A DNA stretch of 64,000 bases from assembly GCA_040772545.1 (NCBI GenBank), contig JAXGXY010000006.1:8212-72211 (forward strand), read 5' to 3'. The translations under genes were made by a program, and so were the position numbers. This document shows positions 10,483-45,109 of the stretch, in pieces. The stretch comes from Christensenellales bacterium. GTDB taxonomy: Bacteria > Bacillota > Clostridia > Christensenellales > UBA1431. Under the pieces are notes generated by a model. The model ran no database searches. It was not told the origin of the DNA and saw only the letters and a list, made by a program, of their open reading frames with translations. Every line of letters starts with the position of its first letter. Position 1 is the first letter of the stretch.

Positions 10483-11304
10483 TCACCCCCTGCAATTCAT
10501 CGCTATGCCCAGCGGCGTGACCAGCAATGGATGGACCGGCTTCGTCGTTTTGACGCCGATCTCCTGTTCGAATTCGGCCTCGAATCTCGTGAAGCAGCAG
10601 GCGCCCCCGACGACATATATCGTCTCCACGTCGTATCCCTCAATGAAGCGTTTCACGATCGAGGCCATCTTCTGGACGACCGGCCTGACCACAGGGAACA
10701 CGTCCCGTTCGTACCGGGACATTTTTTTCATGGCTTCGGCCGCCTCGAAGGAGATTTTGAGGGCGCCGGCCAGCACCAGGCTCATATGGGTGCCGCCGGT
10801 GGGTTCGTCCGCCGTGAGGACGACCCTGCCGTTGCGGATGATGGAGATGCCTGTCGTCCCGCCGCCCACATCCACCACGGCGCCGTCGGTAATCCCCAGC
10901 ACGGTGGCTGCTGCGGTCGGTTCGTCGACCACGTTGTCCACTTCGAAATCGGCAGACTCGACCACGTTGGAGATCACCTTGATGTTGCCTTCGGTGATGC
11001 CCGGCGGGATGGCGCAGGCGGCGCGATTCAGCACCCGCCCGACGATGCCCTCCACCTGCTCCTTGAGCCGTTCCACGATGCGCGTGGCCCCGATATAGTC
11101 CACGACCACGCCGTCCCTCACGACGGACGCTTCCTCCATAACGGCCGCCACCGGCACGTTGTTATTGTCCACCACGGTGATTACGATGCTGGCCGTGCCC
11201 AGATCCACACCCGTTTTGAGGCCGCCACCGCACCCGTTGCATCGCTTTTCGTTCAGGAGCGCGTGGCACGTTTCTATCGCTGCGTTGGCCGCCCAGATGT
11301 CCAC
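10483..11304 (-). CDS. eutJ: EutJ-like actin/Hsp70-fold protein
   Basis: GVDLGTASIV...DEPTAAA...VVDVGGGTTGISI are ASKHA phosphate and adenosine motifs. The 273-aa size matches EutJ. Confidence 0.85.
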   Translation of the reverse strand: MDIWAANAAIETCHALLNEKRCNGCGGGLKTGVDLGTASIVITVVDNNNVPVAAVMEEASVVRDGVVVDYIGATRIVERLKEQVEGIVGRVLNRAACAIPPGITEGNIKVISNVVESADFEVDNVVDEPTAAATVLGITDGAVVDVGGGTTGISIIRNGRVVLTADEPTGGTHMSLVLAGALKISFEAAEAMKKMSRYERDVFPVVRPVVQKMASIVKRFIEGYDVETIYVVGGACCFTRFEAEFEQEIGVKTTKPVHPLLVTPLGIAMNCRG

Positions 11305-13242: not shown

Positions 13243-15051
13243 TCACTCCTCCAGTGAAAGGATGAGTCCGGTGGCTACCGCGTTGCGCGGGCCCTCCACA
13301 CCGCGTATGTTGGCGCGCCCGGCAACGATGCTGTAGCCTGAGAGCGCCTCTGTCACCATCTGCGGGATCTCGAAATCCAGGGCCGAGCCGCCCACCAGCA
13401 CCACGAAGCCCACGTCCCGCACGTTCCCGGTGGGGCTGACCCTCGACAGGGCGCGAAGGGCGTTGGTGACAAACACCTTTTCCTTGGCGCTGCGTCTTAT
13501 GTTCCTGATTTTTTCCAGCGTAAGTTTGCTGTCGATCGGTTCCATCCCGCCCTCTTTGAGAATGACGACGCGTGCAAACGTCCTCGGGTCCAGCGGCCGC
13601 TCGAAAAACTGCACCGTACCGTCCTCGTGGCGGATATGGAAAAGGCTCTCCACCTTGGCGAGCGGATACTGCTTGATGTCTTCCGCCAGCGCGTCGTCCT
13701 CCAGGCCCATCTCCGATTTGATAAGCATCGTCACCATGTTCCCGGCGCCGCCAAGATGGATGGATACGATGTCCCCTGTGCCGTTGATGATCGAGGCGTC
13801 GGTGGAGCCCGCGCCCATGTCGATGATGGCCAGCGGTTTGGCCGTGCCGGGAGTGGTCAGGGCCCCGCGTATGGCCATGTCGGCTTCCACACCGCCTACC
13901 TCGACCTGTACCCCGAGTTTCTCGGCGAGTTCCCGGGCGATGTTCTCCATCTGTAACCGGTCGGCCTTGACCATCGCGGCGATGCCCACCGCGTTTTCCA
14001 GCGAGAATTCGTCGGCGACGCTGCCCCGTACACTCCTCGGGACAAACGTATCGACGGCCAGTATGTCCTGTATCCTGATGCTGGACGGATGCTGTTTTGT
14101 CAGCTGGCTCATCACCTGGCGCACGCGCTCGAGCATCCCTCCCGCGTTGGTGCCGGCCTCGCCCCTGACATCCTCGAGAGGCAGCGCCTTCGACTGCGCC
14201 TCCATGATTTTCTCGGCGCCCTCGTCCACGTTCACGCTCGCCGAAGCCTTGCCGGTAAAAATGATCTTCCCGGCGGGGATGCGCCGCTCCTTCACGTCGC
14301 CCTGCGGCGTCTTGATGACGACGGCGGACCGGTTCCCTATCAGCGCCCGGGCGATCGGCACGACCTGGCGCGTTTCATCGGCATCCAGGCCGAACAACGT
14401 AGCGATGCCGAAGGGGTTGGAGAGCACCTCCACCACACCCCCCGGCTGCGCGACCTCTATCGCGGCCTTCATCCCCAGAGGCACCTTGTCGATCAGCAGG
14501 ACTTCGTCCACAATCGGGATTTTTTTCTTCAGGCGGTTGTTGATGAGCACCCCGTCATCGCTCTGCGCGATGACGCCAACAATATTGTATTGGTCCAGGC
14601 AAGCGTTTATCATCGCTGCCGCTTTTTCGAAATGGATCGATTTGGGAACGACGGCGATAAGGTCGTTCTCCGTCGGTTCCTGCCGTACGTTTTCCAACGG
14701 TACCGTCTTTCCGATGCCGACGCCGATCCCTCCCGGCGTGGAAGGGTTGTGCCCGATCATGGTCGATTCGGTGATGATGGTCTCGGTGATGGTCTCCATG
14801 GCCACATCCCCGATGACCGGCGCCGCTTCGTTTACCCGTATCAGGCTCAGATCCGACACCTTCACAGCGGCTTTTTTCAGCGCGTCCGAGAGGGCCTGGA
14901 ATACGCCGTGTATGTTCTGGGTAGTCCCCTTTATCCCCGTCGTCGGGACGATCGCGCTGGCGATGAACTCCATCCCCCCATCGTCGTGAATCTTTGCTAT
15001 GGCTACCTCCGTAGTGGCATTCCCGATGTCTACGCCCGCTACGATCTTCAT
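13243..15051 (-). CDS. pduG: Diol dehydratase reactivase large subunit PduG
   Basis: The product starts MKIVAGVDIGNATTEVAIA (DdrA/PduG N-terminus) and is 602 aa. ATG is at 15051; the ORF-track start at 15156 adds an Ala/Gly-rich extension that is unlikely to be real. Confidence 0.9.
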   Translation of the reverse strand: MKIVAGVDIGNATTEVAIAKIHDDGGMEFIASAIVPTTGIKGTTQNIHGVFQALSDALKKAAVKVSDLSLIRVNEAAPVIGDVAMETITETIITESTMIGHNPSTPGGIGVGIGKTVPLENVRQEPTENDLIAVVPKSIHFEKAAAMINACLDQYNIVGVIAQSDDGVLINNRLKKKIPIVDEVLLIDKVPLGMKAAIEVAQPGGVVEVLSNPFGIATLFGLDADETRQVVPIARALIGNRSAVVIKTPQGDVKERRIPAGKIIFTGKASASVNVDEGAEKIMEAQSKALPLEDVRGEAGTNAGGMLERVRQVMSQLTKQHPSSIRIQDILAVDTFVPRSVRGSVADEFSLENAVGIAAMVKADRLQMENIARELAEKLGVQVEVGGVEADMAIRGALTTPGTAKPLAIIDMGAGSTDASIINGTGDIVSIHLGGAGNMVTMLIKSEMGLEDDALAEDIKQYPLAKVESLFHIRHEDGTVQFFERPLDPRTFARVVILKEGGMEPIDSKLTLEKIRNIRRSAKEKVFVTNALRALSRVSPTGNVRDVGFVVLVGGSALDFEIPQMVTEALSGYSIVAGRANIRGVEGPRNAVATGLILSLEE

Positions 15052-15166
15052 TGAAGCACCTCCACAAACGGCTGCTGAATGGTGTGCGCCTGTCATACCC
15101 GGCGCACCCGGTGTCGCCGGCGCCGCCCCGCCTCCGTCAGTAAGCGGGGCGGCCACCGGGAGAATG

Positions 15167-16335: not shown

Positions 16336-18000
16336 CTACTTTATACTGTCAGGATCGACGGCCTTGGGGATATTCTTGATCTCCTCCCAACGCGCGTCGC
16401 TGATGACATAGCCCGTCATCGGCCCGGTATAAGCGTTCGGACAATTGACAGCGCTTAACACGTTGAAATCTTTGTCCAGTATGGCCGAGGTATGGAGGTA
16501 GTCGCCTGTGACGTGCTGCAAAGTGATTTTGAACAAGCTATCGGCAACATCCTCGAAGCCCGCCCTGTAGAGCGCCTTTACCATGTCGATGCCGGTTATT
16601 TTGCGCTCCAGCAGGCCCTGCGCGGCCTTGAGGTCTTCCACGACGGTGCGGTCGGGCATATCCTTGCTGCCGTGGGCATACGTCGCGGCCTCCACTTCCT
16701 CGTCGGTGATTTCGGGCAGCCCGAGTTCCTTGAAAAGCGCCTGCATAACGCGTGCCGCCCTGTTGCGTGCGGCGACAACCTCTTCCTCGGATACGGGTTT
16801 CAGTCCGCCGTCGATCTTGAGGTCGCGCTGGATGACGTTCCAGTCGTCATAGTCCTCGGCATCCCAGTTGGACCCCGCGAACATGTTGTCGTAGTTGGGT
16901 ACCGCCGAATAGCCGGAACACAGGAAGTCGGTTCCGGGCACGAACTGCATGAGCGAGCGCGCGACCCTCCTCAGGTCGGAGTGCGTGAACGTCTGGTCGT
17001 TGGAGGACGCGACCTCCATGTCGAGCATGGCGCCGATGACGTTCTCCGCAAGGATGGCGCGTATGCCCGAGGGGAACGCCGCAGGAACGCCGACGCAGCT
17101 CACGGAGCCGTTCTGCGTGCCCTGCACGCCCGCGCCCTTGGTCACGTACTGGCAGCGCGCCTCGAGATAGAGCATGGACTTGCCCTCGGCGTAACCCATC
17201 TGCACCTCGGAGCCCGTCCCGGAGGTAAACCTCATCTTCAGGCCGCGCGAAGCGTAGCAGGATGCGAGGAACGACTTGGACCAGGGCGTATCGTCGCCGT
17301 CGATGAACACGGGCTCGGTCCCGTATACGGACACCGTCTCGGCGTAGGCCGTAAAGCCGCGCATGCCCAGCAGGAGCTCGGTGGCTTCCTCCACGGCGCA
17401 CTGCGTGAGTATCCCCGGCCGGCCGACCTGCGCGCCGACCATGAGGGCCATGGCGTTGAAGGGCGCATAGCGCACGATGCCCACGGTGGTCTCCAGTTCG
17501 TCGAAACCGCGCAGCGCGGCTTCGGCGGCATCCGCCGCAATCTGAACAGGCTGGTCCTTCACGTTTGTAACATGGGCCTGGTTGGACGGGAACAGCCGCG
17601 GCCGCATCTTGGTCAGCGCCATCATCATTTCCAGCACGTTCATCTTATTAAGGATGTCCGTGACCTTCGCAGGAGTCATGGCCGTGGTATACTTCACGAT
17701 TTCGTCGCGCGGCACGTTGATGTCGCACAGCATCCGCGCAAACTCCAGCGAATCGATAGCCATAGCCTCCTCGGCATAATCCAGGTTGATCGCATGATCG
17801 GCAATGAAAGTGTCGAGCATGTCGAAATCGGCCCTCTTCTTGCCGTCGAGCTCGGTGACCCTTCCATTCTCGATTTTTATGCTCGGCTTGGGATCGAAGG
17901 GGCTGTTCATGGTGATCAGCCCGACCTCCGGCCACTCCTGTACGTAACCGTCCTGGTTGACAGGCCTTTGCGCCAGAACTTCAAAGCGCTTGGATTTCAT
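16336..18000 (-). CDS. pduC: B12-dependent diol dehydratase large (alpha) subunit PduC
   Basis: The product is 554 aa and starts [20 protein letters not shown]..., the hallmark N-terminus of PduC/PddA. Confidence 0.95.
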
Positions 18001-18880: not shown

Positions 18881-19159
18881 TCAGTCGCCCTGGGGAAGGA
18901 TCTTCTCAACGTCGGTGTGGGGACGGGGGATGACGTGTACGGATACGACCGTTCCGACCTTTTCGGCCGCTACGGCACCCGCGTCGGTGGCTGCCTTGAC
19001 GGCGCCAACGTCTCCCCTGACCATGACCGTCACAAGCCCGGAACCGATCTTTTCGTAGCCTACGAGCGCGACGTTCGCCGATTTGACCATGGCGTCCGCC
19101 GCTTCGATCGCACCTACGAGACCTTTGGTCTCAACCATGCCCAGCGCTTCCTTCGTCAT
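18881..19159 (-). CDS. pduA: BMC-H shell protein PduA
   Basis: The 92-aa product ([53 protein letters not shown]) is a canonical PduA/PduJ sequence. It is the first gene of the operon. Confidence 0.95.
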
Positions 19160-19297: not shown

Positions 19298-19392
19298 CAG
19301 CAAACTTGACAATCGACAAAAACAACGGTTAGAATAAGGTGTTACTTTTTGTTGCAAGCACACATCGAGGTTTTTTCATCATAACGACAAAA
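19286..19392. repeat. Three copies of CGACAAAA, including an 11-bp perfect inverted repeat TTTGTCGTTAT / ATAACGACAAA
   Basis: The copies are TTTTGTCG at 19286-19293 (inverted), CGACAAAA at 19314-19321 and CGACAAAA at 19385-19392. The 11-mers at 19287-19297 and 19381-19391 are exact reverse complements. All lie in the divergent pduA / histidine-kinase intergenic region. Confidence 0.8.
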
Positions 19393-19429
19393 AAATCCCC
19401 CTACTTCGCCTGCTAAGGGAGAGAATCTT

Positions 19430-20659
19430 ATGAAAACCGTTATGCAAATCTCGGATTATATCGATCTCGACGTGCTACAAAGCATCCAGAACCACTTCAC
19501 CACGGCTACGAGCCTCGCCGCCGTCACTGTGGACTACCGAGGGGAGCCCATCACGGAATACAGCCGGTTTTCCACATTCTGCGTGAAGCTCCGCAAAAAG
19601 GACCGGTGCCGTGAACTCTGCTACGAATGCGATGCCCACGGCGGCCTGCAATCCGCCATAGCGATGCGGCCCTACATATATAAATGCCACGCGGGCCTCG
19701 TGGATTTCGCCGTGCCCATCATCGTATACGGGACGTACATAGGCGCGATGCTCTGCGGACAGGTACGCCTGCCGCCCGAGGACGAGGGGAAACTGAGCAA
19801 CATCATCGAAAGGAAGGTGGACTGGCTCGACGACCCCGAACTGGTCGCTGCCGCCGCCGACATTCCCACCATCTCCTATGATAAATTATTGGCCGCCGCC
19901 AACATGCTCTACGAAATCGCCAACTACCTCGTGCAAAGCAAAATCATCCACTACGACCGCGAAGAACTCAACCTGAAACAGCGCAAGCTCATAGAAGAGA
20001 CCCATAAACGCGTAGAACTGGAGAAAACGCTCAAGGAAATGGAATGGAAGACGCTCCAGCTCAACGTCAACCCCCATTTCCTCTTTAACGCACTGAATAC
20101 GGTCGGGCGCCTGGCTTTGCTGGAGAACGCGTCCAAGACGGAAGAGGCGATGTATGCCCTGGCCGAAATCATGCGTTATACCCAGCAGCGCAATACCATG
20201 GTCTCGCTCTCCGAAGAGATCGAGTTCGTGAAGAACTACCTCAAGGTACAGTCCATACGCTTCGGCGACAGGCTCCGGTATACCCTCGACATCCACGAGG
20301 ACCTGATGGGCCTGGAGTGCCCCTACAACACCATACAGCCGTTCCTCGAAAACTGCATCAACTACGTCGTCGAAAAAGAGCCGGAAGGAGGCGACATCAC
20401 GCTCAAGGCGCGCGCCGAAGGCAAAAATCTCGTAATCGAGATTGCCGACAACGGTAAGGGCATGGACAGCGCCCGTATCAAGCGCATCCTCGACGGAGCG
20501 GAGTACCTGCGCCAGAACGAGAGCGGTTTCGGGATCTACAGCGTATCGAGGCGTCTGAACCAGGCCTACGGCGGCAAAGCCTCACTTCATATCGAAAGCG
20601 TCGACGAGGGATTTGCTGGCACGCGCATCACCATCACCCTGCCCCTGAAGATGAGGTGA
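19430..20659 (+). CDS. Sensor histidine kinase with N-terminal PocR ligand-binding domain
   Basis: The N-terminal 170 aa or so are PocR-like (LQSIQNHF...VTVDYRGEPIT....FC........C..C....G....CHAGLVDFAVPI...G...G...CGQ). This is followed by a LytS/YesM-type His_kinase motif (NPHFLFNALN) and an HATPase_c domain (DNGKGM...GFG). Confidence 0.85.
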   Translation: MKTVMQISDYIDLDVLQSIQNHFTTATSLAAVTVDYRGEPITEYSRFSTFCVKLRKKDRCRELCYECDAHGGLQSAIAMRPYIYKCHAGLVDFAVPIIVYGTYIGAMLCGQVRLPPEDEGKLSNIIERKVDWLDDPELVAAAADIPTISYDKLLAAANMLYEIANYLVQSKIIHYDREELNLKQRKLIEETHKRVELEKTLKEMEWKTLQLNVNPHFLFNALNTVGRLALLENASKTEEAMYALAEIMRYTQQRNTMVSLSEEIEFVKNYLKVQSIRFGDRLRYTLDIHEDLMGLECPYNTIQPFLENCINYVVEKEPEGGDITLKARAEGKNLVIEIADNGKGMDSARIKRILDGAEYLRQNESGFGIYSVSRRLNQAYGGKASLHIESVDEGFAGTRITITLPLKMR

Positions 20660-20660
20660 C

Positions 20661-21707
20661 ATGCAAATGGCAAAGGTGCTTATCGTCGAAGACGAAGAAA
20701 TCGAGCGCATCGTACTAAGAAAGATCATAGTGGAAAATTTCCATGATATAGAACTCGTGGCCGAGGCGGTGAACGGCACCGACGCCATCGCCATCATCGA
20801 CGAAAACGCCTTCGACCTGGTCATCCTCGACATAAATATCCCCGGCATCAACGGGCTCGATGTGTGTGAGGCCCTCAAGACCAAGTATCCGGATACGGGC
20901 GTTGTCATCACCACGGCCTACAGCAAATTCGAATTCGCCTTCCGCGCCATCAAAATAAAGGTCAACGATTATCTTCTCAAGCCGGTCCGCCCGCAGAAAA
21001 TCATCGACTGCGTCAACTCCATAATGAATGACAGGCGCAATTCCGCGCCCGCCCCAAGCGACCAGTACCTGGAAAAACTGAGCATGCATATCAGGGAATA
21101 CTCCTACCGGGATACGGTCAAATGCCTGCGCGACACGCTTGTCGAAATATACGAGCGGTATACGGATCTAGGCACCATCTCCAGCATCGTTTCAAGGATC
21201 GCCAATAAAATCGCGGAGACTGCCATGCTGATGGGGCTGGACATCGAGACCAAGCACCAGTATCAGATCTACTACCTGAAGCAGCGGCTCGCCCCTTACG
21301 ACAACCGATCCGATATCTATTTCAAGCTCCTTTCCATGGTCAATGCCATTTTTGACGAACTGCTCCGTTCCAGCAAATTCAACAAGAACGATTTTAAATT
21401 CATCATCAATTATATAGAACGCAACATCGGCCAGAACATCACGCTCAACGACGTTGCGTCCCAGGCCAACATCAGCACCTACTACCTGAGCAAACTGTTC
21501 AAGCGGGAAATGGGCGTGAACTTCGTCGCCTATCTGGCCGACAGGCGGATAGAGCTGGCCAAGGATATGCTCCAACGAACCGAGATCCCCATTATGAACA
21601 TCGCCATGGAACTCTCTTTCAACGAACCCAACTATTTCAGCCGTGTTTTCAAAAAGAAGACCGGCTTTACCCCCTCGGAATACCGCGACCGGTCGAGGGA
21701 GATTTGA
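20661..21707 (+). CDS. Response regulator, CheY receiver plus AraC-type HTH output (YesN-like)
   Basis: The receiver is VLIVEDEE...DLVILDINIPGINGL...KP. The C-terminus is an AraC HTH (ISTYYLSKLFKREMG.NF..YL...R...A..ML......I..IA.E..F.EPNYFSRVFKK..G.TPSEYR). The gene starts 2 nt after the kinase stop. Confidence 0.9.
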   Translation: MQMAKVLIVEDEEIERIVLRKIIVENFHDIELVAEAVNGTDAIAIIDENAFDLVILDINIPGINGLDVCEALKTKYPDTGVVITTAYSKFEFAFRAIKIKVNDYLLKPVRPQKIIDCVNSIMNDRRNSAPAPSDQYLEKLSMHIREYSYRDTVKCLRDTLVEIYERYTDLGTISSIVSRIANKIAETAMLMGLDIETKHQYQIYYLKQRLAPYDNRSDIYFKLLSMVNAIFDELLRSSKFNKNDFKFIINYIERNIGQNITLNDVASQANISTYYLSKLFKREMGVNFVAYLADRRIELAKDMLQRTEIPIMNIAMELSFNEPNYFSRVFKKKTGFTPSEYRDRSREI

Positions 21708-21962
21708 ATCTAAAGGCTGATACGGCGCGCTTTCACTCCTTTCGTCCTTGCGACTGCCGCAAGCAGGGGCTGAAGAGGTTAACCCCTGCATATGCGGCAA
21801 CCGGCAGGTAGGGGTTTGGTGAAACCATGTATTGCATACAGGCGGGGGCAATCCCCAATAGGCGTGGGCATTAATCCCTCTTTCGCCTGCGAACGCGCTT
21901 CATAATGCCGAAGAGACACGGTTAACAGGGACTCTTTATTTCTCTGGTTACAAAGCCATAGA

Positions 21963-21996
21963 AAACCCTCTTGCGCACGCACATGCAAGAGGGTTT
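21963..21996 (-). terminator. Intrinsic-terminator-like hairpin of riboswitch A expression platform (also readable on plus strand)
   Basis: The minus-strand RNA reads AAACCCUCUUGC-auguggugc-like 10-nt loop-GCAAGAGGGUUU followed by UCUAU. On the plus strand the same stem is followed by UUUAUCG, about 255 nt after the response-regulator stop. Confidence 0.55.
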
Positions 21997-22051
21997 ATCG
22001 TAAAAGCCGAATTCCTGTTCCCGCCCTCCGCAGGCCGCACTGGTTTTCGAT

Positions 22052-22210
22052 ACCGGGCAGGCTTCCTGGCTCGGCTTCATCCTCGCCGGAAGCCTTCCCG
22101 TCCATCGGGACAGTGGCGTATTCTCCGGTCCGTCAGCCATACAGTAGCGGGGGCTGCAACGGATTCTCACCGTTTTTCCTATTATCCTGCGCCTTGGCAG
22201 GCACCCGTAT
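22052..22210 (-). promoter_or_regulatory. Cobalamin riboswitch A (orphan, antisense-facing)
   Basis: The reverse complement reads, in canonical order, GGTGCC..AATAGGAAA..GGTGAGAATCC..GCAGCCCCCGCTACTGTA..GCCACTG..GGGAAGG..AAGCCGAGCCAGGAAGCCTGCC (B12 box). It sits directly after the btuD-like stop. Confidence 0.85.
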
Positions 22211-22309
22211 CGCTGTATTCTGTTTTCCTGCATCTTACCATACAGCGATCCTGTGCGGAAAGATACATTTTTGTTCACGCCTGAAAATTTTTTTCTCCTG
22301 CTTGTCGGG

Positions 22310-23128
22310 TCATCCCCGCGCCGCCTCGCGGATCTCCACTCCGTTCGCCGCCGCGCCGTAACGGGGGAAAAGGCAGGGTTCCCCGGTCTGAGGATGCGGG
22401 ATCTTTATAAGGCGGACGCCGTATACCTCGTCCACCACTTCTCCCCTCAGTTGGGACGGGAACCCAAACGCGCGCAGACGGCCGCCGTCGAGCAGGGCGA
22501 TGTTGTCGCAGTAGTGAAGCGCGAGGTTGAGGTCGTGCAGTACGCACACGATCGTCATGCCGGTTCGAACCGCCGACGCGCGCATGAATTCCATGACCTC
22601 GAGCTGATAGCGGATATCCAGGCCGGTTATCGGCTCATCCAGCAGCAGCACGGGCGTTTGCTGGGCGAAGGCCCGCGCGACCACAACCCGCTGCCATTCG
22701 CCGCCGCTGAGCCGGGTAACGGGGCGGTCGGCCAAATGGGTGATGCCGCTGTGCGCCATGGATGCGCGCGCGATAGCCAGATCCTTATCGGATTCCCCCT
22801 GAAAGCGGCTCAGCCAGGGATGGCGTCCCATCAGCACCACGTCCAGCACGGTGAAATCGAAGTCCAGCCGCGAATTCTGCGGCACGAGCGCCACCAGCCG
22901 CGCCAGCTCCCTGGTCGAATAACTGCGTACGTCCTTTCCGTTTATCATGACGTTTCCCGATTTCGGGGCCAGCAACGCGTTGATCAGCCGAAGCAGCGTC
23001 GATTTCCCCGAACCGTTGGGCCCGATAATCCCGGTAACGGTGCCTTTTTGCATGGACAGGGTAACATCGAAGAGGACGTCCCTTCCGTTATAGGCAAAGC
23101 TCAGTCCATTGATCTTAATCAGCGCCAT
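22310..23128 (-). CDS. btuD: ABC transporter ATP-binding protein (BtuD/FepC type)
   Basis: Walker A is GPNGSGKST, the signature is LSGGEWQRV and Walker B is LLLDEP. It is the third gene of a cobalamin-riboswitch-led operon. Confidence 0.7.
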   Translation of the reverse strand: MALIKINGLSFAYNGRDVLFDVTLSMQKGTVTGIIGPNGSGKSTLLRLINALLAPKSGNVMINGKDVRSYSTRELARLVALVPQNSRLDFDFTVLDVVLMGRHPWLSRFQGESDKDLAIARASMAHSGITHLADRPVTRLSGGEWQRVVVARAFAQQTPVLLLDEPITGLDIRYQLEVMEFMRASAVRTGMTIVCVLHDLNLALHYCDNIALLDGGRLRAFGFPSQLRGEVVDEVYGVRLIKIPHPQTGEPCLFPRYGAAANGVEIREAARG

Positions 23129-23158
23129 GATTCTCTCCTTTTTCCGATCTGTCTACGG

Positions 23159-24190
23159 TCATACGCTGCTCCTTCGCAGAAGGTAGATGAAGAAGGGGCC
23201 TCCGAGCATGGCGGTCAGTATGCCGACCGGCAGTTCCAGGGGCGCGATGATGATGCGCGAAACCAGGTCTATCGCCAGCAGATACAGGCCGCCGCCGATG
23301 AAAGAAAACGGCAGCAGGACACGGTGGTCCGGTCCGATGACAAGGCGCATGGCGTGCGGCACCATCAGGCCCACGAAGCCGATGATCCCGCACGCCGACA
23401 CCGCGGCTGCGACGGCCAGCGAGGACGAGGCGATGAGGGTTTTGCGCACGCGGGGCACATGCACGCCCAGGCTCTGCGCTTCCTCGTCCCCCATGAGCAT
23501 CGCATTGAGGTCGCGCGTATAAAACATACAGACGCCGCATCCTATTATTACAAGCGGGATGCACCACACGGCCTTATGCCAGGACGCGTTACCGAAACTC
23601 CCCATCGTCCAGGAGATGATCCCCTCCAGCTTATCGTGGTTCATAGCCAGCAGGCCGTTCATGACCGCTGCCAAAAAGGAGCTGAGCGCGGTCCCGGCCA
23701 GCAGGAGGGACAGCATGCTCATGCGTCCTCTCACGCGGGACAACTGGTAGACCAGCAAAACCGTGACCAGGCTGAACCCGAAGGCAAAGACCGTGATGCT
23801 GCCCAGCCCCAGCAAGCTCGCGCCGCCGAAGACCAATGTCGCGACCGTTGCGCCCAGCCCCGCGCCCGACGATACGCCGAGGATACCGGGGTCCGCCATG
23901 GGGTTTTTGAAAACGCCCTGCATGCATGCGCCCGAAACGGCCAGCGCCGCGCCGACGAAGAAGGCCAGCAGCACCCGGGGCAGGCGGACCATCGTAATGA
24001 TGTTGTACGCCATGGTATCGCTGCTCGCGCGCCCGGTAATTATGTCGGCGAACACGGATACCGTGCGCTCGACGGATATCCCCGCGCTGCCCATCATGCA
24101 GGACAGGATCAGCAGCACGACGCTGAGGACTGCGATGACGGATACGGTGACGATGATCCGGCGCCTGCGGAGCGCAAACGTTTTTGCCAA
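23159..24190 (-). CDS. btuC: FecCD-family ABC permease (BtuC type)
   Basis: The 343-aa product is polytopic with FecCD-family features (RLPRVLLAFFVGAALA.SG...Q..F.NP.ADP.ILG.S.GA). Confidence 0.7.
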   Translation of the reverse strand: MAKTFALRRRRIIVTVSVIAVLSVVLLILSCMMGSAGISVERTVSVFADIITGRASSDTMAYNIITMVRLPRVLLAFFVGAALAVSGACMQGVFKNPMADPGILGVSSGAGLGATVATLVFGGASLLGLGSITVFAFGFSLVTVLLVYQLSRVRGRMSMLSLLLAGTALSSFLAAVMNGLLAMNHDKLEGIISWTMGSFGNASWHKAVWCIPLVIIGCGVCMFYTRDLNAMLMGDEEAQSLGVHVPRVRKTLIASSSLAVAAAVSACGIIGFVGLMVPHAMRLVIGPDHRVLLPFSFIGGGLYLLAIDLVSRIIIAPLELPVGILTAMLGGPFFIYLLRRSSV

Positions 24191-24227
24191 GCCGGTGTTC
24201 CCCCTTCAGTCAGACAGGCAGGCCCTT

Positions 24228-25088
24228 TTACTCGGCGGGATGCAGGAGCTTTGCCATACGCACCAGCGCATCGACGATACGTGGGGCGGCACGGCTGGAT
24301 GTGTCATAGTCGATGGCGTACACCCTGTCCTCCCGCACGGCGCGCAGCCCCTGGTAATTGGGCGACGCCTTGAAGTTCACGGCATCCTCCTTTGGGCCCG
24401 AGATCAGGATCACGTCGGGGTCGTCGGCAAAAATCTGTTCGCGCGTATAACTCGGCCAGGGGACCGAGATGTCCTTCGTAACGCAATCGGCGTGCGCCAT
24501 TTCGAGCATGTCGGTAATGAAGGACCCCTGCCCGACGGTGTAATCCCCCTGATCCCCGAAGCTTACGGCATAATACACCTTCGGGGTTTTGCCGTCGGCG
24601 GCTGCGATGGTTTCGGCCTCGGCTTCCTTTTCCCGCATGTCGGAAATCACCTGCGTCGCGTCCGCGCCGATGGTCCTGGCCGTCAGCTCGATGGCGTCAT
24701 AGATCCCTTCGTAAGAGGTCGCCTCGTTTACCACGACGTTCGCTCCCATGTCCTGGAGCTGCTTTACGGCATCCTCCTGTATCCCTTTGCCGGCGAATAT
24801 AACGTCCGGTTCCAGCGCCTGGATGGCCTCCAGGTTCGGGCCGCTGAAATCGCCCACCTTGGGCAGGTCATTGGCCCCGGCGGGATAATTGCTGTATAAA
24901 TCGACGCCGACCACCTTATCGCCCATGCCGAGCGCGTATACGATCTCGGTGGCGGCGGGGTGCAGGCAGACGATGCGCTCCACCTCTCCCCCGGCAACCG
25001 CCTCATCCTGATCCGGCGCCGCTTGCGAACATCCCATAAAAACCAGCGACAACAGCACAAGCCCCATCAGGCATGCGATCCGTTTCAT
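24228..25088 (-). CDS. btuF: Periplasmic-binding-protein-type lipoprotein (BtuF-like B12-binding component)
   Basis: ATG 25088 follows GGGAGGGA. The lipoprotein signal is MKRIACLMGLVLLSLVFMGCS. The class III SBP core (RIVCL.PAATEI.YALG..DKVVGV) is as in BtuF/FhuD. The ORF-track start at 25160 runs into the riboswitch platform. Confidence 0.7.
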   Translation of the reverse strand: MKRIACLMGLVLLSLVFMGCSQAAPDQDEAVAGGEVERIVCLHPAATEIVYALGMGDKVVGVDLYSNYPAGANDLPKVGDFSGPNLEAIQALEPDVIFAGKGIQEDAVKQLQDMGANVVVNEATSYEGIYDAIELTARTIGADATQVISDMREKEAEAETIAAADGKTPKVYYAVSFGDQGDYTVGQGSFITDMLEMAHADCVTKDISVPWPSYTREQIFADDPDVILISGPKEDAVNFKASPNYQGLRAVREDRVYAIDYDTSSRAAPRIVDALVRMAKLLHPAE

Positions 25089-25104: not shown

Positions 25105-25141
25105 ACAGAAAAATCCCTTTCGCATCGTACGTGCAAAAGGG
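25105..25141 (-). terminator. Terminator hairpin of riboswitch B expression platform
   Basis: The minus-strand RNA reads CCCUUUUGC-acguacgau-GCGAAAGGG followed by AUUUUUCU. It lies about 20 nt upstream of the btuF-like RBS. Confidence 0.7.
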
Positions 25142-25200
25142 TAAACGGCCAGTTTCTCATACTATCCCCACCCTCCGCGGGTCGTACATTTTATTGCGAA

Positions 25201-25352
25201 CGGGGCAGGCTTCCTGGCTCGGCTTCATCCTCGCCGGAGACCTTCCCATCCATAAGGACAGTGGTTCGCGCTCCGGTCTGTCAGCCATACAGTAGCGGGG
25301 GCTGCAACGTTTTTACGTTTTTCCTATTATCCTGCTTAAAGCAGGCACCCTT
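25201..25352 (-). promoter_or_regulatory. Cobalamin riboswitch B (leader of btuFCD-like operon)
   Basis: It has the same conserved blocks as riboswitch A (AATAGGAAA, GCAGCCCCCGCTACTGTA, ACCACTG, GGGAAGG, AGCCAGGAAGCCTGCC). It shares exact runs of 36, 30 and 20 nt with copy A. Confidence 0.9.
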
Positions 25353-25434
25353 GTTCGCGTATTTAGTTGTTGATTTATCTTATCACACAATCATTTCATG
25401 CGAAAGACATTAATTTGTCGTGCGCTGAAAGATT

Positions 25435-25865
25435 TCAGCCGTGTCCCAGTGCCGCGCGCAATTCCTCGAGGCCTTCGCCGGTGAAGGCGCTGACACAGTA
25501 GAATTCATCGACCCCGGCCATCATCAGCATCCTGCGCGCATAATCCACGTCGGCTTCCGGGTGGTCCACCTTGGTGATGATCCCAATGACGGGAATGGGA
25601 AAAAAATAGCGGAATCCGTTGATAAACACCGGCTGCGTATCGGTCGAACAGTGCACGAACGCGACGATGTCCGCCTCCGTGCCCGTCACCTGCAGGTGCC
25701 CGCGCGCATCCAGCGGTTCTCGCTGTACTCTCCGGGCGTGTCGATGTATTTGTCCAGGTATTCCACGGCCTGCGTCTTGCTGTAGTCGAGCGCCATACCC
25801 TCGAGCGCCTGTATCAGCGTGGTCTTCCCTGCGCCCGTGCGGCCGATGAGCATCACGCGTGCCAT
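25435..25865 (-). pseudogene. pduV: EutP/PduV-family GTPase, split by a frameshift
   Basis: ATG 25865 opens MARVMLIGRTGAGKTTLIQAL...IDTPGEYSENRWMRAGTCR*, with the stop at 25686-25688. The rest of the family sequence (TGTEADIVAFVH...GIITKVD...GEGLEEL) continues in another frame as ORF 25435..25689. The junction lies in a GCGCGCGGG run near 25695-25712. Confidence 0.7.
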
Positions 25866-37044: not shown

Positions 37045-37121
<77 letters not shown>

Positions 37122-37124
37122 TCT

Positions 37125-37200
37125 TGGAGCCAATGAGGGGACTCGAACCCCTGACCTGCTGATTACGAATCAGCTGCTCTGCCATCTGAGCTACATTGGC
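37125..37200 (-). tRNA. tRNA-Thr (anticodon CGT), CCA encoded
   Basis: The reverse complement is GCCAATGTAGCTCAGATGGCAGAGCAGCTGATTCGTAATCAGCAGGTCAGGGGTTCGAGTCCCCTCATTGGCTCCA. The anticodon loop is TTCGTAA and the T-loop is TTCGAGT. Confidence 0.95.
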
Positions 37201-43815: not shown

Positions 43816-43829
43816 CCTACTACGCATAA

Positions 43830-43996
43830 GCAGATTTGAGGCGCGGCAACCATCACTAACCCCCTCGAGCGCGTCACGGCGCGATGAGACGGGGCGAAAG
43901 GGGAAGCCGCCGAAGGGACCGCCCGTGAACGGCGTTCGCCCTGGGTGCACGGTGAACAACCCTGTAACTGCCATCTTAAAGTGATGGAGCGCTTTT
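43830..43996 (+). promoter_or_regulatory. Lysine riboswitch (L-box)
   Basis: Conserved L-box blocks appear in order: GAGGCGCG ... GAGACGGGGCGAAAGGGGAAGCCGCCGAAGG ... CCTGGGTGCA ... CCTGTAACTG ... GGAGCGCT. The element lies between the promoter and asd. Confidence 0.8.
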
Positions 43997-44055
43997 CTGT
44001 TTGGCTCGAGGGCGTTTTCGTTCCACGGAGAATCCCTCAGGGTTACCCTTAAAAG

Positions 44056-44104: not shown

Positions 44105-45109
44105 ATGAGGAAATACGGCATCGCCGTCGTCGGCGCGACCGGCATGGTGGGAAGGAAAATGCTTCAGGTGCTCGAAGAGCGGAGGCTCCCCGCATCCGGC
44201 TACCACGCGTTCGCGTCCAGCCGTTCGGCCGGCAGGCGCATCGGGTTCATGGGCAAAGAACTGGTGGTCGAGGAACTGACGGAAAACTGTTTTGCGGGCA
44301 AGGACATCGACATCGCCCTGTTCTCGGCGGGCGGCGGGACCAGCCTCCATTACGCGCCCTTTTTCGCGAAGGCCGGCATCGTGGTCATCGACAACTCCAG
44401 CGCGTGGCGCATGCATAAGGACGTGCCGCTGGTCGTGCCCGAGGTGAACCCCGAAGCGCTGATGTCGCACAACAACATCATCGCCAACCCCAACTGCTCG
44501 ACCATCCAGGCCGTCGTGGCGCTCAAGCCCCTCTACGACCTTTACGGCATCGAGCGCATCGTCTTTTCGACCTATCAGGCCGTTTCGGGCGCCGGACTTG
44601 CCGGGTACAGGGACCTCGAAGGCGGGATAAGGGGCGAAGCGCCGAAGAAATTCACTTACCCCATCTTCGGCAACTGCCTGCCCCACATCGACGTGTTCCA
44701 GGATAACGGATACACGAAGGAAGAAACCAAGATGATCGACGAAACGCGCAAGATACTGGGCGACGACTCGATCCGCATCACCGCCACGACGGTGCGCGTG
44801 CCCGTCTTCTACGGCCACAGCGAGAGCATCAACGTCGAATTCAAGAAAGACTTGGACATGGAGGAACTCAGGGCCGCCCTCGAAGCCGCGCCGGGGATCG
44901 TGGTGGAAGACGACCCGGAGCAAAACAAATATCCGATGCCCGTCTTCGCGCAGGACACCGACGAAGTCTATGTCGGGCGCATACGGCGCGACGAATCCGT
45001 GCGCAGCGGGATCAACATGTGGGTCGTTGCCGACAACATCCGCAAGGGCGCGGCCACCAACGCCGTACAGATCGCTGAGGAGCTTATCCGCATGCAGGAT
45101 GCCCAATAA
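44105..45109 (+). CDS. asd: Aspartate-semialdehyde dehydrogenase
   Basis: The product has IAVVGATGMVG (NADP fold) and the active-site block IANPNCST. It is 334 aa. Confidence 0.95.
   Translation: MRKYGIAVVGATGMVGRKMLQVLEERRLPASGYHAFASSRSAGRRIGFMGKELVVEELTENCFAGKDIDIALFSAGGGTSLHYAPFFAKAGIVVIDNSSAWRMHKDVPLVVPEVNPEALMSHNNIIANPNCSTIQAVVALKPLYDLYGIERIVFSTYQAVSGAGLAGYRDLEGGIRGEAPKKFTYPIFGNCLPHIDVFQDNGYTKEETKMIDETRKILGDDSIRITATTVRVPVFYGHSESINVEFKKDLDMEELRAALEAAPGIVVEDDPEQNKYPMPVFAQDTDEVYVGRIRRDESVRSGINMWVVADNIRKGAATNAVQIAEELIRMQDAQ

Follow-up and report, generated by a model that had tools for sequence, protein, structure and literature searches.

The damping of a pathway activator by B12 shortage through an antisense RNA is a rare mechanism and, to our knowledge, has so far been proven in only one bacterium. 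EutX of Enterococcus faecalis and Rli55 of Listeria are riboswitch-containing small RNAs that sequester the ANTAR regulator EutV. In Listeria monocytogenes, the B12-riboswitch antisense RNA AspocR (Rli39) is described as controlling pocR (Mellin et al. 2013; PMC8079631, PMC9943018). Its target, PocR, is presented as a one-component regulator with PocR sensor and AraC helix-turn-helix domains; AspocR is reported to act in trans, and the element was initially taken for a terminator belonging to lmo1149, the gene upstream of it (PMC8079631). The survey of Serrano-Gutierrez and Merino (2023) counts only two antisense-acting riboswitches demonstrated experimentally, and describes a SAM riboswitch antisense to the ubiG-mccBA operon of Clostridium acetobutylicum (PMC9943018). 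It also predicts antisense cobalamin riboswitches on pocR orthologs of Listeria spp., Enterococcus raffinosus and Vagococcus, using representative cultured genomes and not Christensenellales MAGs. As cobalamin targets the tables consulted give PocR-domain (COG4936) and LysR proteins, with neither a YesN-type response regulator (COG4753) nor a YesM-type kinase (COG2972) among them (PMC9943018).

We analysed a stretch of 64,000 nucleotides (the window) from an uncultured Christensenellales MAG, in which a cobalamin riboswitch without a gene of its own, RS2, is directed towards the 3′ end of a regulator operon. This operon consists of a histidine kinase and a response regulator, and is inverted within a pdu microcompartment cluster. 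The genes concerned are the following.

13243-15156: DDR gene, downstream of pduA (Pfam).
16336-18000: Dehydratase_LU gene, downstream of pduA (Pfam).
18881-19159, minus strand: pduA, gene 1 of the operon pduABCDE-GH... (Pfam BMC).
19306-19335: near-consensus kinase/regulator promoter, TTGACA, 18 nt, TAGAAT (promoter scan).
19430-20659, plus strand: histidine kinase with PocR sensor (Pfam PocR, 3.2e-48; His_kinase; HATPase_c).
20661-21707, plus strand: response regulator, receiver and AraC-type HTH (Pfam Response_reg, 2.7e-25; HTH_18, 4.1e-22).
22310-23128, minus strand: btuD-like ABC ATPase, stop at 22310 (Pfam ABC_tran).
23159-24190, minus strand: btuC (Pfam FecCD).
24228-25088, minus strand: btuF (Pfam Peripla_BP_2), start at 25088 after a GGGAGGG ribosome-binding site.

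The neighbours of the kinase/regulator pair are genes for a B12-dependent diol dehydratase, its reactivase and shell proteins, and we infer from domains and gene context that the PocR-domain kinase and the AraC-type regulator control pdu. pduA lies on the same strand as RS2, past the inverted pair, and btuFCD encodes a B12-type ABC importer (22310-25088, minus strand). Coordinates and Pfam domains agree with the sequence-only reading of this locus, according to which the next sequence downstream of the riboswitch is the antisense of the AraC-type regulator and then of the PocR-domain kinase.

The riboswitch elements are located as follows.

21751-21803, minus strand: conserved long hairpin on the predicted read-through RNA, an interrupted stem of about 20 bp with apical loop AACCUCUUC.
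21961-21993, minus strand: RS2 intrinsic terminator, a 9-bp stem CCCUCUUGC/GCAAGAGGG with a 10-nt loop (hairpin at 21993-21966), then UUUUC (21965-21961).
22020-22034, minus strand: invariant RS2 block CCUGCGGAGGGCGGG, 15 nt (alignment of relatives).
22038-22223, minus strand: RS2, cobalamin riboswitch aptamer without a gene of its own (RF00174, cmscan).
22232-22261, minus strand: RS2 promoter-like site (read from the sequence).
25115-25367, minus strand: RS1, canonical cobalamin riboswitch leading btuFCD (RF00174, 94.7 bits), with its aptamer at 25188-25367 and its terminator at 25115-25141 (terminator scan).

In the Rfam cmscan, RS2 matched RF00174 over model positions 1-189 of 189, not truncated, with 112 bits (E = 3e-27) against a gathering score of 31.5 bits. 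The alignment contained GCCACUG, the GGGAAGG block and AGCCAGGAAGCCUGCC in order and with high posterior probabilities, the B12 box being GCCAGGAAGCCUGCC at about 22056-22070. At the level of sequence, this covariance-model search, proposed beforehand in the sequence-only reading, confirmed its claim of an orphan cobalamin riboswitch with ordered core blocks and a B12 box: RS2 is a genuine full-length riboswitch with no gene of its own.

The candidate promoter of RS2 combines a -35-like TTCCGC/TTTCCG, a spacer of 17-18 nt and the extended -10 TATGGTAAGAT, and its predicted transcript would start at about 22225, immediately ahead of the aptamer. Because its -35 is weak in the window, the generic promoter scan did not list it; the extended -10 form TRTGnTAnnnT and a -35-like hexamer are nonetheless present in 8/8 aligned RS1 and RS2 copies, always equally far from the aptamer. 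Between the btuD stop and RS2 (22224-22310), neither sequence reading nor the terminator scan found a minus-strand terminator. Both feeding routes suggested earlier, operon read-through and an own promoter, appear plausible, the latter as a conserved predicted form. Downstream of the aptamer, GCGGAGGG (22031-22024) lies within the 15-nt block, which was unchanged in 7/7 sequences aligned. The block forms a small hairpin with a GGAGG loop in the minimum-energy fold, and pairs with the terminator 5′ arm in nascent-RNA folds of two relatives (L004 and L007), as expected for the antiterminator that had been suspected here; the antiterminator of the window is short, with one mismatch. The terminator-like hairpin described earlier also held up. 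It was missed by our simple terminator scan because its 10-nt loop exceeds the 8-nt maximum of that scan, and its pairing was kept in 98.6% of cells across eight RS1/RS2 copies, the substitutions being a single double compensatory one and four replacements of U-A by U.G, which can pair on the minus strand alone.

RS1 is a second riboswitch in the window, absent from the sequence-only reading. Aligned with RS2, it shows 81% mean column identity, promoter, antiterminator block and terminator included, and the two have in common the promoter form, the CCUGCGGAGGG block and the terminator besides belonging to the same aptamer family. Judged by this alignment, RS2 is a paralog of RS1. The two differ in what follows: a ribosome-binding site and btuF after RS1, non-coding sequence and a convergent gene after RS2. 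The leader riboswitch of a B12 importer must shut off when B12 is present, and because RS2 has the same design, its platform is predicted to be of the OFF type. RS1 orthologs are closer to each other (identity 0.80-0.81) than RS1 is to RS2 in the window (0.74), which indicates that the duplicate is older than the split of the lineages and has been retained since. In the one lineage without btuFCD, the single riboswitch was considered as a recombinant of RS1 and RS2; it is RS2-like at three of only five diagnostic columns, RS1-like at one and neither at the last. When the sequence after the RS2 terminator was compared with a decayed btuF 5′ end, the similarity was only faint, at the ribosome-binding site and start (GGGAGG in L001, ATGAAGCGCGTT in the window). 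The motif RCAAWWAWNTNTCTTT was considered as a regulator site common to riboswitch and pdu promoters and was rejected, as at ≤1 mismatch it was present only at RS1 and RS2.

Five lineages with this locus were recovered (the window with L095; L007; L004, L005 and L006; L008; L001, L002, L003 and L097), with regulator identities of 76-100%. Their contigs stem from JGI Ga0334901 and 3300038975 and from the runs SRR14306778, ERR15459720, SRR32167786 and SRR27372229. In all five a riboswitch is convergent on the 3′ end of the regulator gene, so that the layout is indeed kept in related genomes, a check suggested beforehand, and aptamer, promoter, antiterminator block and terminator are all intact. 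The RS2 orthologs of the relatives score 95-109 bits against RF00174. Their aptamers are 75-87% identical, whereas the regulator gene next to them reaches only 49-67% at its four-fold degenerate sites, which are near saturation; the conservation of aptamer and platform far exceeds that of the neutral sites in this gene. Since only five lineages of one narrow clade are concerned, this argument represents few independent events. The physical link to a B12 importer, part of the sequence-only reading, holds in the window and is not essential: the L001/L002/L003/L097 lineage is without btuFCD, its riboswitch following pduV directly. A metagenome contig search with a 33-base riboswitch/platform pattern returned a strain 97% identical to the window (L094/L095), no new lineage, and one RS1 from a 77% relative (L096). 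A search of genome contigs with a PocR-kinase alignment used the generic pattern HFLFNALN; among the matches listed, the clade of the window was absent and only distant loci (identity ≤45%) were present. These loci, from Anaerobutyricum, Eubacterium, Tissierella, Acetobacterium and others, served as negative controls: although they are pdu loci with a PocR kinase, no cobalamin riboswitch was found at any of them. In related pdu loci lacking the riboswitch, a gene for a B12-binding-domain protein adjoins the kinase.

In our preferred reading, which we consider probable, RS2 is a separate B12-gated unit that follows an AspocR-like logic, has an unrelated local origin and has a two-component system as its target; its sole downstream product would be a non-coding RNA antisense to the kinase/regulator operon. 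What we infer from sequence is promoter activity, termination that responds to B12, and the antisense RNA itself, with its length and its action on the regulators. When AdoCbl is sufficient, the aptamer would fold, the GGAGGG block would be kept in its own small hairpin and the terminator at 21993-21961 would form, leaving a transcript of about 265 nt only. Kinase and regulator would then be freely expressed from their near-consensus promoter, and pdu would be on if 1,2-propanediol is present. With low AdoCbl, pairing of the GGAGGG block with the terminator 5′ arm would let RNA polymerase read through, having started at the RS2 promoter or further upstream, in the btuFCD operon or, where btuFCD is missing, in that of pduV. 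These polymerases would pass the conserved hairpin and run antisense into the regulator and kinase genes, lowering their expression via colliding transcription, RNA-RNA pairing or both. The diol dehydratase microcompartment would thus not be built without its B12 cofactor, and in the window low B12 would also turn on the importer via RS1, coupling the acquisition of B12 to the holding back of pdu.

We found no terminator that would end the antisense RNA. Unterminated read-through would reach pduA in sense and contradict our model if neither Rho nor RNA decay put an end to it. This extension onto the pduA sense strand had not been considered in the sequence-only reading. We rejected the idea that the read-through RNA serves as a sense leader for pduA and later genes, which would turn pdu on without B12 and also requires a 2.3 kb untranslated antisense transcript.

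RS2 could have been the ordinary 5′ leader of a small unannotated protein gene located in the 254 nt that separate it (minus strand) from the stop of the convergent regulator gene (plus strand). The window does contain a 30-codon ORF there (MPTPIGDCPRLYAIHGFTKPLPAGCRICRG, start near 21871) with an AGAGGGA ribosome-binding site 4 nt before the ATG, so that the earlier statement that no such ORF lies downstream does not strictly hold, and gene callers reported ORFs of 84 codons in L002 and 116 codons in L007. However, the 30-codon ORF sits in a window-specific insertion, the L007 call begins within the aptamer, start codons and reading frames downstream of RS2 vary among lineages, and cross-lineage tblastn similarity is limited to the hairpin and to the stretch antisense to the conserved C-terminus of the regulator. 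The short ORFs are not conserved; they lie in the window-specific insertion or are shifted in frame by indels in relatives. Neither alignment nor tblastn nor inspection of relatives gave a conserved ORF between the RS2 terminator and the regulator gene, and to this extent the earlier statement stands. Further short ORFs exist downstream of RS2. As the sense-strand gene expected downstream of a canonical 5′ leader appears to be missing, a small-gene leader is hardly credible. It is somewhat less improbable, and still very unlikely, that RS2 is a non-functional, undecayed leftover of the btuF-leader duplication or a riboswitch recombination scar. Such an origin is compatible with the clear paralogy to RS1, promoter and terminator included, with the faint btuF echoes and with the poorly conserved linker 3′ of the terminator, which carries the window-specific insertion. 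A decaying copy would, on the other hand, hardly outscore RS1 (112 vs 94.7 bits), nor would aptamer, promoter, antiterminator and terminator be expected to stay intact in 5/5 lineages despite near-saturated four-fold sites, after a duplication older than the lineage split. Somewhat more weight, although it remains quite unlikely, can be given to RS2 as a conditional end of the btuFCD or pduV operon and a bidirectional terminator, with no effect on the kinase/regulator pair. The riboswitch follows btuD or pduV without an intervening terminator, the RS2 terminator stem folds on the plus strand too, the regulator gene of the window is without a separate terminator of its own, and the Listeria element was itself initially taken as the lmo1149 terminator (PMC8079631). 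Yet btuFCD would be transcribed only at low B12, through RS1 read-through, when RS2 would not terminate, which would make RS2 a poor operon terminator; moreover, the conserved promoter and the 186-nt aptamer, maintained at 95-112 bits, would be superfluous for a plain terminator.

The hairpin on the read-through strand is superfluous to a plain antisense model. It is a single long hairpin with a loop of 7-9 nt, whose core CCUCUU(C) is invariant in the five lineages while the stem sequences vary. Its minus-strand fold is more stable than that of the complement in 6/6 cases. The window holds a single copy of it, and no copy was found in 1.2 Mb of other loci. Rfam at permissive E-values gave chance-level matches only over 21650-22000. 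In relatives the hairpin lies past the regulator gene's own terminator and would therefore belong to the riboswitch transcript alone; read on the minus strand, that plus-strand terminator lacks a U-tract and should let the antisense transcript pass. The conservation of the hairpin suggests that the read-through RNA does more than plain antisense pairing. A further, doubtful idea is that of a dedicated B12-gated regulatory RNA with the CCUCUUC hairpin as effector or processing module. If true, ribosome-binding sites would be targeted by this RNA in trans, or the module would govern what becomes of the antisense RNA, and the whole would represent a new class, a riboswitch-controlled RNA governing a two-component system and derived from a duplicated importer leader.

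A trans-acting RNA gated by RS2, in which the hairpin of the long form is the working part and the overlap with the regulator gene is secondary, could pair with the Shine-Dalgarno sequences of pdu or regulator mRNAs or bind a protein. It would resemble EutX/Rli55, in which the effector module is confined to the long form. Besides the features of the hairpin just given, its confinement to the riboswitch transcript included, the resemblance of the CCUCUUC loop to an anti-Shine-Dalgarno, with 11 bp possible at the pduA ribosome-binding site, and the reported action of AspocR in trans (PMC8079631) speak for it. The 11-bp match is however found in the window alone. No conserved GAAGAGG target was present in the ribosome-binding regions of pduA, kinase and regulator in the five lineages, nor a conserved complement to the loop among kinase/regulator mRNAs or the GAAGAGG sites of the window. 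No minus-strand terminator follows the hairpin, so that no defined 3′ end of a small RNA is visible. The locus resembles EutX/Rli55 in its orphan B12 riboswitch, in a microcompartment under two-component control, and in a predicted long form with an extra structured module that B12 would replace by a short form. In contrast to these systems, the RS2 RNA runs towards the regulator gene and would extend into it, a single long hairpin with a 7-9 nt loop takes the place of paired ANTAR hexaloop hairpins, and the regulator is an AraC-type DNA binder and not an ANTAR RNA binder, which makes EutX-style sequestration unlikely. We rejected a sponge of that type on the last two grounds, and consider a trans-acting RNA in general unlikely.

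The antisense reading that we prefer brings RS2 closest to AspocR. As AspocR is described (PMC8079631), both elements are cobalamin riboswitches located 3′ of and convergent with a pdu activator, after an unrelated upstream gene and with no conserved gene intervening. Both would be termination OFF switches, predicted in the case of RS2, giving a short RNA with B12 and a long antisense RNA without it, so that no activator of this ligand-dependent pathway is made without the cofactor, and both targets combine a PocR sensor with an AraC HTH. Unlike in PocR, these domains are on separate proteins, a histidine kinase and a response regulator, encoded by a 2.3-kb two-gene operon that the antisense RNA would cover. 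RS2 is also a local paralog of the btuF leader and not a homolog inherited with pocR, which points to an unrelated local origin. It stands in most lineages in tandem with a riboswitch-controlled B12 importer, its predicted read-through RNA carries the conserved hairpin, and its antisense action is a prediction. The AspocR-like B12 logic of the sequence-only reading is therefore retained for the OFF-type platform, the convergent position and the neighbouring pdu regulators, and does not depend on the importer link. Like the cases predicted in the 2023 survey, ours is a computational one, resting on a riboswitch convergent with the regulator of a B12-dependent pathway (PMC9943018). The SAM riboswitch of C. 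acetobutylicum likewise sits, as described, where an operon ends and is transcribed in the opposite direction to it, the operon being on at high ligand only; it differs in its ligand and in targeting enzymes, not regulators (PMC9943018).

With two demonstrated examples only, every further well-supported one is informative about the generality of the antisense riboswitch mechanism. The present one suggests that a riboswitch convergent on the activator of a cofactor-dependent pathway has arisen a second time, from a copied btuF leader, and its target, a two-component system instead of the one-component PocR, is new with respect to AspocR. Copying of a cis-regulatory leader would be a simple route to a regulator of neighbouring genes. 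The B12-binding-domain protein at pdu loci without the riboswitch hints that a B12 input to the pdu two-component regulators is a general need, satisfied by more than one means. In most lineages of this clade, a single signal would drive opposite outputs, turning the importer on and the pathway activator down.

An Rfam scan of the whole window detected two cobalamin riboswitches, both on the minus strand: RS1, the leader of the btuFCD importer genes, and RS2, an orphan element convergent with the response regulator gene. The order on this strand is RS1, btuF, btuC, btuD (stop at 22310) and RS2, and gene calls and domains bore out the assignments that a sequence-only reading had made around RS2. 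Past the kinase/regulator pair, pduA, pduB, the diol dehydratase genes pduCDE, the reactivase and further genes are again on the minus strand; the plus-strand pair is therefore an inverted module in an otherwise one-direction pdu cluster.

19430-20659, plus strand, PocR-domain histidine kinase, convergent with RS2
20661-21707, plus strand, response regulator (receiver and AraC-HTH), convergent with RS2
21751-21803, minus strand, long hairpin (sequence alignment and fold)
21993-21966, minus strand, RS2 terminator hairpin CCCUCUUGC/GCAAGAGGG, then UUUUC (sequence and fold)
22031-22024, minus strand, GCGGAGGG segment of RS2 (sequence)
22038-22223, minus strand, RS2 aptamer (RF00174, full model, 112 bits, E 3e-27)
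24228-25088, minus strand, btuF, starting after a GGGAGGG site
25188-25367, minus strand, RS1 (RF00174, 94.7 bits)

The covariance model upheld the earlier call of the orphan aptamer, and the B12 box, the GCGGAGGG segment and the hairpin with its UUUUC were all recovered at essentially the positions proposed for them. A consensus terminator scan overlooked this hairpin only because of its 10-nt loop. When the complete RS2 platform was folded, the terminator was present and the 15-nt block CCUGCGGAGGGCGGG folded into a small hairpin whose loop is GGAGG. In folds of the nascent RNA lacking the 3' arm, from the related loci L004 and L007, UGCGGAGGG paired with the terminator 5' arm, a pairing with one mismatch in the window. 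Folding thus supports alternative structures for the modelled platform. In an alignment of eight RS1 and RS2 copies, 98.6% of cells at the nine base pairs of the terminator are paired; variation is slight, which makes the shuffle control weak. The stem shows one double compensatory change, plus four changes from U-A to U.G that can pair on the minus strand only.

RS1 and RS2 share 81% mean column identity across 430 nt, in an alignment spanning the extended -10 promoter (TGTATGGTAAGAT versus TGTGTGATAAGAT), aptamer, GCGGAGGG block, terminator and U-tract. RS2 is therefore a copy of the entire importer leader, beyond the aptamer alone. Identity is 0.80-0.81 among RS1 copies from different lineages versus 0.74 between RS1 and RS2 within the window, so that the duplication predates the lineage split. 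As is established for btu riboswitches, the leader of a B12 importer has to turn off when B12 is present; since RS1 and RS2 have a common platform, this analogy argues that B12-bound RS2 also terminates transcription.

A mechanical ORF list begins btuF at ATG 25160, within the terminator region of RS1; a ribosome-binding site and a lipoprotein signal peptide (MKRIACLMGLVLLSLVFMGC) instead fit a start at 25088. Upstream of RS1, a pduV/eutP-like GTPase gene (25435-25865, minus strand) is broken into two frames, one matching the L004 ortholog at residues 1-53 and the other at residues 54-139; this frameshift marks a pseudogene or else an error of assembly. Elsewhere in the window are two tRNA genes (37048-37200, minus strand) and a lysine riboswitch (43828-44002, plus strand; RF00168, 78 bits) upstream of an ORF at 44105-45109 (plus strand).

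Close homologs of the response regulator show 85, 81, 80 and 76% identity, the next only about 44%. By the NCBI names of cluster members, the organism belongs with uncultured Christensenellales/Clostridiales MAGs. An RF00174 element convergent on the regulator 3' end is present in every close lineage, as well as in a strain 97% identical to the window, and the arrangement first described from the window alone is thus retained in relatives.

L007, RS2 ortholog, RF00174, 109 bits
L004, RS2 ortholog, RF00174, 104 bits
L005, RS2 ortholog, RF00174, 106 bits
L001, L002 and L003, riboswitch at the RS2 position, RF00174, 95 bits
L006, riboswitch at the RS2 position, cut by the contig end
L008, RS2 ortholog; the contig stops within the aptamer, leaving its 3' part, the platform and the terminator, all of which align

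Conservation across lineages extends to the promoter form TRTGnTAnnnT, the aptamer, CCUGCGGAGGGCGGG and the terminator; the linker past the terminator is poorly kept, with an extra insertion in the window. Aptamers of all lineages score far above the RF00174 threshold and are 75-87% identical between lineages, versus 49-67% at four-fold degenerate positions in the neighbouring regulator gene. This comparison and the age of the duplication point to selection on RS2, and we regard its being a relic as very improbable. The layout RS1-btuFCD-RS2 is common to the window and L004. The lineage of L001, L002, L003 and L097 has no btuFCD, and its riboswitch begins 56 nt past the pduV stop, facing the regulator gene. 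The orphan riboswitch is therefore bound to the regulator 3' end and not to the importer; its proposed chaining to B12 import holds in the window and L004 but not in that lineage.

Short ORFs past RS2 are lineage-specific, lie in a window-only insertion or start within the aptamer, frame-shifting indels run across the sole conserved stretch downstream, and no conserved coding gene was found there among the relatives compared. The claim that no ORF with a ribosome-binding site lies downstream stands for conserved ORFs, but has to be amended for the window, where the insertion (about 21830-21950, minus strand, between the RS2 terminator and the long hairpin) contains a 30-codon cysteine-rich ORF with such a site, absent from relatives. 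That RS2 is the leader of a small ORF seems to us hardly credible.

The long minus-strand hairpin lies about 65-80 nt past the regulator stop in every lineage. Its apical loop, CCUCUU(C), is invariant and its stem sequences vary among lineages. In each of the six sequences, G.U pairs make the minus-strand fold more stable than that of the complement (L004, -34.6 versus -24.7 kcal/mol). The hairpin occurs once in the window, was found nowhere in 1.2 Mb of other loci searched, and matched no Rfam family. In L004, L007 and L001 the regulator has its own plus-strand intrinsic terminator right past the stop codon and before the hairpin (11060-11130, 2841-2905 and 11063-11135, respectively), so that the hairpin would be borne only by riboswitch read-through RNA. 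Its loop resembles an anti-Shine-Dalgarno sequence; no conserved complementary target of the loop was found. The hairpin may act as an effector loop, bind a protein, or serve as an RNase III or stability element; it is unlikely that RS2 is a switch for a trans-acting RNA built around it.

The window has no clear plus-strand terminator just after the regulator stop (21707-21750). Its regulator mRNA probably extends as far as the sequence complementary to the RS2 terminator, which would probably give a built-in sense/antisense overlap of about 290 nt. In the kinase 5' UTR, a conserved block ACNACAAAAAAATCCCCCTACTC (19378-19405, plus strand; also in L004, L007 and L008) follows a near-consensus promoter (TTGACA, 18 nt, TAGAAT; 19306-19335).

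From these comparisons we consider RS2 the probable source of an antisense transcript gated by B12. When B12 is present, a short RNA ending at about 21961 would be made. When it is absent, polymerases would read through the hairpin and on into the regulator and kinase genes, which they would transcribe in antisense; they would come both from the putative RS2 promoter and from the upstream operon, which lacks a terminator. That RS2 is a mere conditional terminator is, in our estimation, quite unlikely. Antisense transcription would lower the activator of a pathway unable to work without B12, and in the window and L004 RS1 would open the importer under the same low-B12 condition. An antisense RNA without a terminator would reach pduA in the sense orientation, an argument that Rho or RNA decay acts on this RNA.

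This proposed logic is that demonstrated for AspocR, the antisense RNA of Listeria, which has a long form of 1,400 nt and a short form of 230 nt and also represses in trans (PMC8079631). The likeness drawn by the sequence-only reading extends to this logic but not to common descent, since RS2 is paralogous to the local btuF leader; by analogy, RS2 is predicted to work like the Listeria element. In a 2023 survey, 292 riboswitches were predicted to act in antisense, among them cobalamin elements on pocR orthologs in Listeria, Enterococcus raffinosus and Vagococcus; the available part of its tables lists no YesN-type regulator or YesM-type kinase as a target (PMC9943018). Judged on comparative evidence from a narrow clade, what is new in RS2, and distinguishes it from the Listeria element, is a two-component target with the PocR and AraC domains on two proteins, the tandem with a riboswitch-controlled importer, and the conserved hairpin on the read-through RNA.

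At the more distant pdu loci examined (among them Anaerobutyricum hallii, Eubacterium, Tissierella, Acetobacterium, Lachnospiraceae, Rhizobium, Rhodobium and Desulfosporosinus), the PocR-kinase/AraC-regulator genes run in the same direction as pdu, and a cobalamin riboswitch was found at none of them. In A. hallii-type loci, a gene for a 213-220 aa protein with B12-binding_2 and B12-binding domains (L009 5943-6605 and L011 5679-6320, both plus strand) lies immediately upstream of that for the PocR kinase; through this protein, B12 may act as an input to the same family of regulators. Such a pattern agrees with the view that PocR-kinase/AraC regulators receive B12 status by differing means.
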